DNA from: Candidatus Eremiobacteria bacterium
GTDB lineage: Bacteria; Vulcanimicrobiota; Vulcanimicrobiia; Vulcanimicrobiales; Vulcanimicrobiaceae
Length of the DNA: 64,000 nucleotides
Assembly: GCA_963737065.1 (NCBI GenBank)
Contig: CAVTRC010000001.1
Location: 1,504,001 to 1,568,000 of the forward strand
Direction of reading: 5' to 3'
Shown here: piece after piece, positions 21,001 to 24,000 of the stretch
How positions within the stretch are numbered: the stretch's first letter is position 1
Layout: each line of letters begins with the position of its first letter
Program-made: the position numbers

Positions 21001-24000
21001 CACCACATCGCCGAAGAGAAACCGGATCTCGTCGTGCTCGTGGACTTCGGCGTGTTCAACATGCGATTGGCGAAAGAGCTGCGCACGAAACACGACTATC
21101 AGGGCCCGATCATGGATCTCTTTCCGCCCGCGACCTGGCTCGACAAAGAGAAAGTCGCCCGCGCCGTTGCGTCGTGGACGGTGCCGGTGACCGCGTTCGC
21201 GCATCAGTACGAGTTTTATAAGCGCCATCGGCTGCCGATCATGTTTTTCGGGCATCCGCTGGCCGGCCGGTACGTGACGCGCGAGGCACGCGCCGCGCCC
21301 GCGAGCGATAACGGCACCGTAGCGCTCTTGCCGGGAAGCCGCGGCACCGAGATGCGGTATCACGTTCCCGCGTTGATTGGTGCGCTCAATGCGTTGCGCG
21401 AACGCCGTCCGCATATGCAGGCAATCTTCGGAGCGGCAAACGACGCATCCGAGCGCGCGATCGCGCGCGCCGTCAAAGACGCGGAACTCGATAACGCCCG
21501 CATCGTGCGCGGGTTGCCGGAAGCGCTGCGCGAGGCCGATGCGGCGTTCGTTGCGTCGGGAACAGCGGTGTTGGAAACGATTCTGCTCGGTGTGCCGGCC
21601 GTTGCGTTGTACATCATCGCACCGTATCTCGTGCATCATGCGCGACGCGTGTATTCCGGCAAATATATTACGCTGCCGAACCTCGTGCTCGGGCGTGAAC
21701 TCGTTCCCGAATTGCTGCAAGACGAGGCAACGCCGGAGCGATTGGCGGAGGCCATGGATCGATTGCTCGACGATCCCTCCGCGCAGTACCGGCATATCGG
21801 TGAAGTGCGCGCTGCGCTCGGCTCGCCGACGGCGCTCGACGACTGCGCGCGATTTGCGGTTGCGCTTGCGAAAGCCGGGCAGCAGCACGCGTGATCCGGT
21901 TCTATCACACCTCGGATCTGCACGATCATCGCGGCTTTGTGCCGCGCTTGCGCGCATTGCGTGACGAGCGCCCGGGCTTCTACTTCGATTGCGGCGATTC
22001 GCTGCGCGGCAGTCAAACCGTCTATCACCGAAACGAACCGGTCATCGGTGAACTCGATGCCGCGGGCGTCGATGCGCAAGCGATCGGCAATCGCGAGTTT
22101 CACTATCTCTATTCGTTGCTCAGCGCGCGCGCCTCGAAGATGCAGCACCCACTGGTGTGCACGAACCTGCTCGACACGAAGAACCGCGCGCTGCCGTTTA
22201 CCCCTTCTGTCATCCTGAGCTTGTCGAAGGATCGGCTCAATTCAATCGCGCGTAACAATCCTTCGACTGCACTTCGTTCCGCTCAGGATGACACGCGGAT
22301 CCACATCCTTGGGCTACTGATCATGCAGTATCCGGTTGGAAGTCCATACGAGCGAGTCTTCGGGTGGCGATTTCTCGATCCGTGGGATGCGGTCGCGCCG
22401 TACGCGGCGCAGGTTCCGGACGGCGATATGCTGCTCGTCCTCTCGCATGTGGGATTATCACTCGACCGCAAACTCGCAGAGCGTGTGCCGCGCATCGACC
22501 TGATTCTCGGCGGCCACAGCCACGACACATTGTTCGCGCCCGAAGAAGTCAACGGCGTTCCGATCGTGCACGCGGGCCCGTACGGTCAGTACGTTTCTCG
22601 CACGGAACTCGAATATTCGAACCCAAAACGCCGCTTCGCACTTCGCTCGTGCGAGTTGCTGCCGCTGCTCGGGCCTCCATAGGGCGAGCTACGTGCGTCT
22701 GCTGTTCGTGTCGAACGGGTACGGCGAAATTGCGATCGCGGATCGCATCGCGGAAGAAATAACACGCCTCGAGCCCGGCACGCAGATCGATCACGTCGCG
22801 CTCGTTGGGGAAAGCCGCGCGCGTTTCATGAACGACGTTGGCCCTCGCCGTACGATGCCGAGCGGCGGCCTCATCGCAATGGCCAACGTACGCAACATCG
22901 CACGCGACGTGCGCGGCGGACTGATCGCCTTGACGCTCGCCCAGCGAAGGTTTTTGAAACACGCGCGCGGCCGTTACGATGGTGCGGCCGCGATCGGCGA
23001 TGTCTTTGCGCTTCTGATGACGCTCGCTGCGCACGCGCCGACGACGTACGTAGGAACCGCGAAGAGCGTGCTGGTCGCACCGTATGGGCCGATGGAACGG
23101 CGCACGATCAAGCGCGCGCGCAATATCTTCGTGCGCGATGATGCAACCGCAGCGGACCTGCGACGCCACCACGTCGACGCTATCGCACCCGGCAACGTCA
23201 TCGTCGACCTGTTCGCGGTCGACGACGACCCGCGCGCCGATGAAGCAGTGGCGCGGTTCAAACCGGCGCTGGCGATCTTTCCCGGGAGCCGCGAGAGCGC
23301 ATATGACGACGGCGAATTTCTACTGCGCGTCATCGCGCGCTGCGCGCAGCAACGTCGCGAACTCGGCGCGGTGTTCTCGGTTGCACCAATGCTCGACGCG
23401 AAACGGTTCGCCGCAGTCGCGCGCGATGCGGGTTTCGACGTGCGCGAGCGCAACGACGAACGCATGCCGTTTGAAGCGTTGCTCGGCGAGCGCGTTGTCG
23501 TGCGCGCGTGGCGCGGAGAAATCGGCGTCTTGTTGCGCCGCGTCGAACTCGTTATCGGGCAAGCGGGTACGGCGAATGAAGCCGCGGCCGCCGCGGGCAT
23601 TCCCGTGATGGCATTCGAACTCGCGGCCGATCGCAAGACGCAGTGGTATCGCATGCGCCAGCAGGGGTTGCTCGGCGAAGCATTGACGGTTCTACCGGCG
23701 GATGTCGAGGTTGCATCGAACGGCGTGCTGCATCTGCTCGAGAACGAGTCGCAACGTGCAGCGATGCGCGCGGTGGGACGCGCGCGAATGGGTCCGCCGG
23801 GCGGCGCCGCCGCAATTGCGCGCGCGATCGTGGGGACGCGCTCGTGATACACCGCTGGAACGCATTCGCACCGGTTGGGCTCGCGATCGCGTTCGCATGC
23901 GTGCCGCTCTTTCCGTCGTTCATCACGCTGACGAACGTGCAATTTCCCGGCGTGTCCGTGGTGCCGCTGCCGGCGGCGCTCGTGGTGCTTGCGCTCATGG

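Follow-up and report, generated by a model that had tools for sequence, protein, structure and literature searches.

A stand-alone 5'-nucleotidase-type phosphoesterase as a candidate UDP-2,3-diacylglucosamine pyrophosphatase in Eremiobacterota and Armatimonadota

The gene g01570 (positions 21891..22682, + strand), located in a 64,000-nucleotide window of the genome of Candidatus Eremiobacteria bacterium, encodes a stand-alone metallophosphoesterase (MPE) of 263 aa. Judged by comparative evidence, this protein is rather probably a non-orthologous UDP-2,3-diacylglucosamine pyrophosphatase, the enzyme of the essential fourth step of lipid A synthesis. Three non-orthologous enzymes, LpxH, LpxI and LpxG, are listed for this step in the available part of a review (JBC 2025). 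Lineages with a 'four-enzyme pathway' have had no step-4 enzyme assigned since at least 2010, according to the available portion of the source (Opiyo 2010, PMC3087551), and a literature search of articles without their supplements found no description of a fourth class. Where g01570 lies, how it is conserved, its motifs and fold, its distribution among genomes and its fusions are direct observations; its substrate, its products and the role of R68 are inferred.

The gene is part of a + strand cluster in the order bamA-skp-lpxD-lpxC-fabZ-lpxA-lpxB-g01570-TIGR03492-O-antigen ligase-lptC-lptB-lptFG, and all other genes of its operon have roles in LPS or the outer membrane. According to Pfam and NCBIfam scans, the cluster opens with bamA (12697-15030) and three Skp/OmpH-like genes (together 12697..17576), followed by lpxD (17588..18616; TIGR01853, 333.4 bits), lpxC (18576..19427; Pfam LpxC, 242.5 bits), fabZ (19420..19893; NF000582, 188.7 bits), lpxA (19962..20729; TIGR01852, 336 bits) and lpxB, encoding lipid A disaccharide synthase (20770..21894; Pfam LpxB, 195.1 bits; TIGR00215, 173.8 bits). 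The GTG start of g01570 lies inside the lpxB stop (sequence GTGA, an overlap of 4 nt), and g01571 (22693..23847), encoding a 384-aa GT-B glycosyltransferase of the TIGR03492 type ('LpxB-related'), begins 10 nt past the end of g01570. The next gene encodes an O-antigen ligase-like polytopic membrane protein (23643..25058; Wzy_C, 81.2 bits) and probably starts near 23850; a 449-aa ORF at 23702-25051 runs in another frame than the Wzy_C gene and was rejected as a shadow ORF. Further downstream are lptC (25055-25600; TIGR04409, 39.1 bits), lptB (25597-26343; TIGR04406, 331.7 bits) and lptF/G (26369-27637; TIGR04408, 204.2 bits). A scan of the locus for terminators and promoters gave results at chance level.

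The translated g01570 contains the motifs SDLHD, CGDSLRG, GNRE, SHVG and GGHSH, with GNRE replacing GNHE and all metal ligands retained. Re-reading of the ORFs, of the GTGA overlap and of these motifs bears out the survey's finding that the protein is the catalytic domain of UshA/5'-nucleotidase-type enzymes alone, carrying GNRE and sharing a stop/start overlap with lpxB. Pfam recognised Metallophos alone, slightly below its cut-off (E 4.7e-4; 21.1 versus 21.5 bits), and NCBIfam returned partial matches to SoxB (1.5e-21), UshA-like (7.8e-16) and UshA (1.8e-9), with no LpxH or LpxG model matching at E<=0.01. The DxH motif comprises residues 9-11, too close to the N-terminus for a signal peptide or a transmembrane helix, and the protein is thus predicted to be cytoplasmic. 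In lacking a signal peptide g01570 differs from 5'-nucleotidase/UshA, as it does in lacking the C-terminal substrate-binding domain of these proteins, which are ~500 aa or more in length; members of the g01570 family have ~235-290 aa, the bare domain ~240 aa.

An AlphaFold model built on a 67-sequence alignment (pLDDT 93.5, pTM 0.91), better than the earlier model, likewise ends with the N-domain. It aligns with the N-domains of 5'-nucleotidases at Z 25-27 (229-234 residues, rmsd 2.2-2.9), and Foldseek matches it to 5'-nucleotidase/UshA-type folds at E 1e-17 to 1e-20. The best folds are 2z1a (Z 27.2), NadN (Z 27.1), UshA 1ush (Z 25.8) and SoxB (Z 24.9), and 5'-nucleotidase/UshA, NadN and SoxB are the nearest relatives in sequence as well, with the family profile matching at E ~1e-35. 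LpxH ranks 43rd in the fold comparison (Z 10.4) and is not among the best 40 Foldseek matches. UshA converts UDP-sugars to UMP and sugar-1-phosphate, and in 5'-nucleotidases the His and Asp of motif III (GNHExD) form the catalytic pair. In g01570 these two residues are Arg and His (GNRExH; R68 and H71).

The exchange characterizes the whole family. All 102 members of the family carry R at position 68, where all 90 long 5'-nucleotidases have H. At position 71, H is present in 83% of the family, while 93% of the long forms have D there. The five metal motifs are invariant throughout, with D9, H11, G35, D36, G66, N67, R68, E69, N92, H186, H209 and H211 conserved without exception. In the tree, a single branch (support 0.999) separates the 102 GNR[ED] domains from all others, so that the short GNRE family is monophyletic, of one origin apart from the long 5'-nucleotidases. 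What is new is that the His-to-Arg change reported as a hallmark of LpxH is fixed in this family together with the loss of the Asp partner of 5'-nucleotidases.

With LpxH (PDB 5B49) the g01570 product shares membership of the metallophosphoesterase superfamily, five metal-binding motifs, a cytoplasmic location and the motif-III Arg, which stands in HGNRDF (GNRD) in E. coli LpxH and in GNRE in g01570. According to the available part of the structural study, the motif-III His is replaced by Arg in LpxH only, where the Arg forms a salt bridge with the phosphate of lipid X (Okada 2016, PMC5016852). The two proteins differ in other respects. There is no sequence match (aligned to E. coli LpxH by hhalign, the family scores E 0.076 over 22 columns), and g01570 is missing the helical lid between motifs IV and V that holds the acyl chains in LpxH, having 23 residues between H186 and H209, modelled as one helix and one strand, where E. 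coli LpxH has 81 (H114-H195). The long segment of g01570 lies instead between motifs III and IV (119 residues versus 35 in LpxH). Nor does the g01570 family show a membrane anchor or an obvious pocket for acyl chains.

With this in mind, one may propose that g01570 is a cytoplasmic dinuclear-metal pyrophosphatase that would cleave UDP-2,3-diacylglucosamine into UMP and lipid X, step 4 of the Raetz pathway, and that this lipid X would feed the LpxB encoded directly upstream. According to this proposal, the enzyme would have arisen from the catalytic N-domain of a 5'-nucleotidase/UshA-type enzyme through loss of both signal peptide and C-terminal substrate domain, and through exchange of the catalytic motif-III pair, His-Asp, for Arg and His. 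By analogy with LpxH, R68 may bind the beta-phosphate of the sugar-1-phosphate leaving group; a general acid would be unnecessary with a phosphoanhydride substrate.

In the source genome (95.3% complete, 2 contigs) this step is otherwise unassigned. As the survey's finding had it, LpxH and LpxI are both missing: six-frame profile searches gave no LpxH match at E<=1 (TIGR01854, cut-off 190.35 bits) and a best E of 0.86 for LpxI_C. The best match to the LpxG model (NF033458) reached 14.5 bits. LpxG, the UDP-diacylglucosamine hydrolase of Chlamydia, is a calcineurin-like phosphoesterase recruited to the same step independently of LpxH, and the available text describes it as retaining GNHD and an N-terminal transmembrane helix (Young 2016, PMC4807358); g01570, in contrast, has GNRE and no such helix. 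LpxI would fill the same step and has an unrelated fold and family. The remaining Metallophos genes of the genome are three YfcE-like genes, a secreted CpdA-like gene, a TIGR00282 gene and a 425-aa unknown. LpxK stays below its cut-off (best 16.1 versus 27 bits), WaaA has no match, and KdsA and KdsB are absent.

The family is spread across two phyla. All 61 sampled Eremiobacterota genomes have a family match, the 30 sequences retrieved from them all reading GNRE, and a GNRE member occurs in 42 of 51 sampled Armatimonadota. Over their cut-offs, neither LpxH nor LpxI was found in any of 18 Eremiobacterota and 51 Armatimonadota genomes, and LpxB was found in 18/18 and 49/51, respectively; weak LpxH-like matches in genomes G005, G102 and G118 were rejected as true LpxH, reading GNHD and not GNRD. 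Like LpxH, the family occurs with LpxB, the exceptions being two GNRE-positive genomes (G108 and G124, completeness not given) that showed none. The named members found all come from two LPS-making phyla, both without LpxH and LpxI. The survey's finding expected the family in other Terrabacteria as well; this proved right for Armatimonadota only, to which all named sequences among the best 120 profile matches belong, and no named cyanobacterial member appeared among these matches, which does not imply absence from cyanobacteria. A MAG labelled 'Melainabacteria' (L022) proved to share its phylum sample with an Eremiobacterota genome.

Gene context differs between the two phyla. In Eremiobacterota-type loci, lpxB lies upstream of the MPE gene wherever upstream DNA is available (19/19) and a TIGR03492 gene lies downstream wherever downstream DNA is available (19/19). 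The proposal that g01571 is an invariable partner therefore holds inside Eremiobacterota and fails in Armatimonadota, where none of 11 genomes carrying the GNRE protein has a true TIGR03492. Since the Armatimonadota have the GNRE protein without TIGR03492 and with LpxK (48/51 genomes), only the LpxA/C/D/B core is common to both phyla; the same LpxK count led us to reject the idea that the GNRE protein tracks an LpxK-less, phosphate-free lipid A. In Armatimonadota the GNRE gene is not beside lpx genes. It adjoins kdsC (L025, L060) or kdsD (L024), as well as ArnT-like GT-C genes, which is a second, independent LPS context for the family. In-frame fusions were also found, joining LpxB to the MPE in 7 of 150 cluster representatives and the MPE to TIGR03492 in 3 of 150, one of these a complete protein of 650 aa; the fusions are metagenome gene calls checked by BLASTP only.

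The claim that g01570 is the missing step-4 enzyme thus gains from the LpxH-type switch, the phylum-wide occurrence, the lack of LpxH and LpxI, the presence in Armatimonadota and the LpxB fusions. It is weakened by nine Armatimonadota genomes (G080, G085, G092, G096, G101, G110, G115, G123 and G127) that have LpxB and LpxK and lack the GNRE protein, LpxH and LpxI; in G123 the main contig alone has 3.83 Mb, about the stated size of the genome. With LpxI at 0/51, LpxI was rejected as their step-4 enzyme, and there must therefore be at least one further unrecognised step-4 enzyme, which could also occur beside GNRE. Weak YaeI/LpxG-like matches (40-90 bits, all under the cut-off of 350 bits) are frequent (33/61 Eremiobacterota, 47/51 Armatimonadota) and likewise count against the claim. 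They do not discriminate between GNRE-positive (39/42) and GNRE-negative (8/9) Armatimonadota, and proteins of this type were rejected as complementary to GNRE. Further points against the claim are the missing lid, anchor and acyl-chain pocket, the two GNRE-positive genomes in which LpxB did not show, and the distance of the Armatimonadota gene from lpx genes.

These nine genomes also lend something to an alternative that we consider unlikely, namely that the enzyme acts after LpxB, trimming a head group on the lipid A disaccharide (such as a 1-phosphate or 1-diphosphate) together with the TIGR03492 protein, and that another, unrecognised protein makes lipid X. The constant pairing with TIGR03492 in Eremiobacterota and the MPE-TIGR03492 fusions would fit such a role, as would the phosphate-free LPS of the cyanobacterial four-enzyme type reported in the available part of one study (Opiyo 2010, PMC3087551). 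However, the presence of the family without TIGR03492 and with LpxK ties it neither to the pair nor to a phosphate-free lipid A, and fusions to LpxB outnumber those to TIGR03492. The chemistry also argues otherwise: in LpxH the His-to-Arg change serves a phosphoanhydride with a phosphate leaving group, according to the available text (PMC5016852), whereas one would expect the general-acid His to be retained in a monoester phosphatase.

Another explanation, to which we give little credence, is that g01570 hydrolyses soluble nucleotides or nucleotide sugars in the service of the adjoining glycosyltransferases, converting UDP to UMP and phosphate or controlling UDP-sugar or CMP-Kdo pools, with no lipid substrate. 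The nearest folds, UshA, NadN and 5'-nucleotidases, do act on soluble nucleotides, a lid or hydrophobic domain is not evident in g01570, and kdsC or kdsD adjoin the gene in Armatimonadota. Yet the C-domain with which 5'-nucleotidases bind such substrates is gone and their catalytic dyad is replaced, and the source genome has no Kdo pathway, so a Kdo-linked role would not be the common one. Bacteria are not known to need such an enzyme for recycling UDP in their cytoplasm. Moreover, step 4 would be left without a candidate in a genome lacking LpxH, LpxI and an LpxG-like gene. That g01570 is an ordinary housekeeping metallophosphoesterase, placed in an envelope operon by chance or co-regulation and without a role in LPS, is very improbable: the broad, sub-threshold Pfam assignment and the unrelated neighbours in some Armatimonadota loci (trpC, prfA and a galT-like gene in L030) would suit it, but the lpxB-MPE-TIGR03492 order is kept in all readable loci of the phylum, the gene recurs in an LPS context in another phylum, it is fused with LpxB and with TIGR03492, and its named members all come from LPS-making phyla without LpxH and LpxI.

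If g01570 is indeed the UDP-2,3-diacylglucosamine pyrophosphatase, pathway reconstruction would be completed for two little-studied phyla of diderm Terrabacteria, and a periplasmic nucleotidase domain would have become a cytoplasmic enzyme of a lipid pathway. The family would also be another, independent instance of the His-to-Arg change, providing a natural test of the role proposed for Arg80 of LpxH. For antibiotics directed at LpxH, the relevance is only a reminder that unrelated enzymes can bypass the step.

One may further speculate that the GNRE family represents a fourth lipid X synthase, recruited independently, which converged on LpxH down to the His-to-Arg change and completes the Raetz pathway for Eremiobacterota and for most Armatimonadota. 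In this tentative extension, LpxB, the Eremiobacterota enzyme and the TIGR03492 glycosyltransferase would form a single assembly, as suggested by natural fusions in both directions. The glycosyltransferase would replace the missing Kdo transferase and supply a Kdo-free LPS with its first core sugar, after which the O-antigen ligase would act. TIGR03492 was mentioned in no paper found by our literature search. The survey's finding had called g01571 an lpxB paralogue, a label that comes solely from the family's title in NCBIfam and from a weak cross-match between profiles (LpxB scores 27 bits, E 1.7e-6, on the TIGR03492 model). A BLASTP comparison of g01571 with LpxB gave no significant match (E 1.1), and the AlphaFold model of g01571 (pLDDT 89.5) shows a generic GT-B fold (Z 18-25), with LpxB not among the 50 best structural matches listed. 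The protein matches TIGR03492 over its full length at 205.9 bits, under the curated cut-off of 219.2; scores of 281.9, 223.5 and 221.8 bits were obtained for its orthologues from the phylum.

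In the window, open reading frames and Pfam/NCBIfam family scans define a single tightly packed plus-strand cluster that runs from bamA (12697-15030), at its head, to lptF/G (26369-27637). It comprises lpxD (17588-18616), lpxC (18576-19427), fabZ (19420-19893), lpxA (19962-20729), lpxB (20770-21894), g01570 (263 aa, 21891-22682), g01571 (384 aa, 22693-23847), a gene for a polytopic O-antigen ligase-like protein (Wzy_C, 81.2 bits; reading frame spanning 23643-25058), lptC (25055-25600) and lptB (25597-26343), all on the plus strand. The GTG start of g01570 shares GTGA with the lpxB stop, and g01571 starts 10 nt past the end of g01570. 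A 449-aa frame at 23702-25051 (+) was rejected as a gene, being an Arg/Ala/Cys-rich shadow frame without a family; the frame overlapping it encodes the Wzy_C ligase-like protein, and the operon thus spans lipid A synthesis, ligase and Lpt export. Terminator and promoter consensus sequences matched no more often than chance. Three consecutive Skp/OmpH-like genes (15051-17576, +) separate bamA from lpxD; their products are 267, 449 and 133 aa long, the 449-aa one being extended far at its N-terminus and the 133-aa one beginning like a lipoprotein. Directly 3' of lptF/G is a DUF3084 gene (27644-28588), which by phmmer is kept in 14 of 20 Eremiobacterota-type loci, the other 6 ending before that position.

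The survey's finding described g01570 as a stand-alone UshA/5'-nucleotidase-type domain with a GNRE motif following lpxB, and motifs, fold and the overlapping GTGA all agree with this. Its translation carries the metallophosphoesterase (MPE) motifs SDLHD (D9, H11), CGDSLRG (D36), GNRE (N67, R68), SHVG (H186) and GGHSH (H209, H211), and since the first begins at residue 8, neither a signal peptide nor a membrane helix fits ahead of it. In Pfam it matches Metallophos only, just short of the cut-off (21.1 versus 21.5 bits); in NCBIfam, the models for SoxB, UshA-like and UshA matched in part, and no LpxH or LpxG model was hit. Modelled with AlphaFold from 67 family sequences (pLDDT 93.5, pTM 0.91; low confidence confined to 111-135), g01570 is closest to the N-domains of 5'-nucleotidase from T. 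thermophilus (Z 27.2, 231 residues, rmsd 2.6), NadN (Z 27.1), E. coli UshA (Z 25.8) and SoxB (Z 24.9). P. aeruginosa LpxH ranks 43 among the fold matches (Z 10.4, 157 residues), and Foldseek was concordant. Residues 112-132 (22224-22286) form a 21-residue insertion of low pLDDT, missing in 99% of 102 aligned family members; a length near that of g01570 (about 259-264 aa) occurs only in its closest relatives.

A family search over 1.84 billion cluster representatives yielded 4678 proteins at E<=0.001. Among the best 150, 72 representatives are 225-300 aa long and 67 of these have GNRE (exceptions: P0135, P0208, P0226, P0234 and P0242), and GNH[ED] is the motif of the long two-domain proteins. 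Across 79 genome loci, the motif is GNR[ED] in each of 31 short ORFs and GNH[ED] in each of the 48 others; 47 of the latter are at least 476 aa, and one, at locus L054, is 278 aa. In a maximum-likelihood tree of 199 domains, one branch with support 0.999 sets all 102 GNR[ED] domains apart from the rest, and only a degenerate fragment and one GNHE protein group with them. Position 68 is Arg in 102/102 GNR[ED] members versus His in 90/90 long forms, and position 71 is His in 83% of the family versus Asp, and never His, in the long forms (Asp in 93%). In E. coli 5'-nucleotidase, these two positions hold the His and Asp that act as a catalytic pair. The metal ligands are all invariant across the GNRE family, in which no lid, anchor or obvious acyl pocket is evident.

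LpxH, like the GNRE family, has Arg in place of His in motif III, which reads HGNRDF in the fetched E. coli lpxH; as stated by Okada et al. (2016, PMC5016852), LpxH alone has this replacement in all known sequences. Given an hhalign E of 0.076 over 22 columns and differing motif spacing (III to IV, 119 residues in g01570 versus 35 in LpxH; IV to V, 23 versus 81, the site of the LpxH lid), the two are unrelated apart from this change. At three Armatimonadota loci (L095, L158, L159), the encoded LpxH-like proteins score 35-54 bits on TIGR01854 and retain GNHD where LpxH has GNRD; the Arg hallmark rules them out as true LpxH.

The reported absence of known step-four enzymes from the own genome, which is 95.3% complete, stands: LpxH gave 0 matches at E<=1, LpxI_C a best E of only 0.86, and the LpxG model NF033458 at best 14.5 bits. 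Its remaining Metallophos genes are three YfcE-like ones, a secreted CpdA-like one, a TIGR00282 member and one for a 425-aa protein. No match over cut-off was obtained for LpxK, WaaA, KdsA or KdsB, so the pathway is of the 'four-enzyme' type reported from cyanobacteria and Dictyoglomi (Opiyo 2010, PMC3087551).

All 61 sampled Eremiobacterota genomes contain a strong family match, with GNRE in 30/30 fetched. In the 20 Eremiobacterota-type loci (one, L008, from G015, a genome flagged unpublished), lpxB lies directly 5' of the GNRE gene in 19/19 with upstream DNA and TIGR03492 directly 3' in 19/19 with downstream DNA. The 18 genomes from which the first loci came, G015 included, have LpxB (18/18) and neither LpxH (0/18) nor LpxI (0/18); true TIGR03492 occurs in 7/7 Eremiobacterota among them versus 0/11 Armatimonadota, whose weak matches coincide with lpxB itself. 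The description of g01571 as an invariable partner therefore holds in Eremiobacterota but not in Armatimonadota. Of the 51 Armatimonadota sampled, a GNRE member is present in 42; another 2 encode long GNHE forms only, and in the remaining 7 nothing matched at E<=1e-20. LpxB is present in 49 and LpxK in 48, and LpxH and LpxI are over cut-off in 0/51 each. Named proteins among the best 120 profile matches are all from Armatimonadota; in the protein atlas, the three best clusters are attributed to Vulcanimicrobiota and Armatimonadota, and two that rank lower to Bacillota. In Eremiobacterota the GNRE protein is accompanied by TIGR03492 but not by LpxK or Kdo; in Armatimonadota it is accompanied by LpxK but not by TIGR03492. 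Common to both settings is the LpxA/C/D/B core, whose sole reaction without an assigned enzyme is UDP-2,3-diacylglucosamine hydrolysis.

A second LPS context is seen in Armatimonadota, where the GNRE gene lies directly 3' of kdsC (TIGR01670) in L025 (143.4 bits) and L060 (161.7 bits, one boundary base shared); in L024, kdsD (TIGR00393, 300.1 bits) lies a few hundred bases upstream of it. ArnT-like GT-C genes follow it in L024, L053, L060 and L062; the Armatimonadota loci L027, L029 and L030 have no telling neighbours. L030, from a MAG, also encodes nearby (5289-9152) a 1287-aa SufB into which intein and LAGLIDADG homing-endonuclease domains are inserted. When oddly long representatives among the best 150 were compared with the window's proteins by BLASTP, in-frame fusions emerged, known from metagenome gene calls alone: LpxB-then-MPE in 7/150 (P0130, P0131, P0141, P0146, P0175, P0194, P0211) and MPE-then-TIGR03492 in 3/150 (P0165, P0171 and P0167, a complete 650-aa protein with 305 bits on TIGR03492).

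g01571 had been called LpxB-related; it scores 205.9 bits on TIGR03492, slightly below a cut-off that its orthologues in the phylum exceed, but BLASTP found no significant similarity to LpxB. Its sequence matched no solved structure, and its model (pLDDT 89.5) is a generic GT-B fold (UDP-GlcNAc 2-epimerases, Z 25.4; many glycosyltransferases, Z 19-23; WaaA, Z 19.8). Its place in the gene order, after the disaccharide enzymes and before the O-antigen ligase, the confinement of TIGR03492 to Eremiobacterota among the two phyla sampled, and the lack of WaaA in the own genome suggest that g01571 may be the first core glycosyltransferase of a Kdo-free LPS.

The proposal that g01570 is the UDP-2,3-diacylglucosamine pyrophosphatase gains from the His-to-Arg change, the occurrence in 61/61 Eremiobacterota and the fusions. 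However, nine Armatimonadota genomes have LpxB and LpxK without a GNRE protein, LpxH or LpxI, 7 of them with a canonical cluster lpxC-fabZ-lpxA-lpxB-msbA-waaA(-lpxK-lpxL), so an unrecognised step-four enzyme exists in that phylum. YaeI/LpxG-like proteins are candidates for it (138 bits on the LpxG model in L196, 100.8 in L180). Such weak matches occur in 47/51 Armatimonadota (39/42 GNRE-positive, 8/9 GNRE-negative) and 33/61 Eremiobacterota, none over the 350-bit cut-off, and are not diagnostic since the model also matches in B. subtilis and Lactococcus. The other 28/61 Eremiobacterota lack any LpxG-model match, and the GNRE protein is in all 61. Also speaking against the proposal are the family's lack of a lid, anchor or obvious acyl pocket and the GNRE-positive genomes G108 and G124, in which no LpxB was seen. 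On balance, we regard g01570 as a rather probable UDP-2,3-diacylglucosamine pyrophosphatase, a reading that is the best available and now better founded. If true, a known reaction has a further, new type of enzyme, from the same superfamily as LpxH and LpxG. The latter was named the third class (Young 2016, PMC4807358), and step four is still assigned to LpxH, LpxI or LpxG where a 2025 review lists it (PMC12444477); the literature searched yielded no description of the GNRE family or TIGR03492.

In GNRE-less Armatimonadota, a fused FabZ-LpxA (503-535 aa) precedes lpxB-msbA-waaA-lpxK-lpxL (L163:4256-5863; L164:7126-8637, minus strand; L165:3935-5512). Three loci from MAGs labelled Verrucomicrobiia (L006), Binatia (L014) and Melainabacteria (L022) have the lpxB-MPE synteny of the Eremiobacterota type, with TIGR03492 downstream in L014 and L022 and L006 stopping at the MPE. 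Their public taxon labels look wrong; the phylum sample that contained the L022 genome also contained an Eremiobacterota genome.
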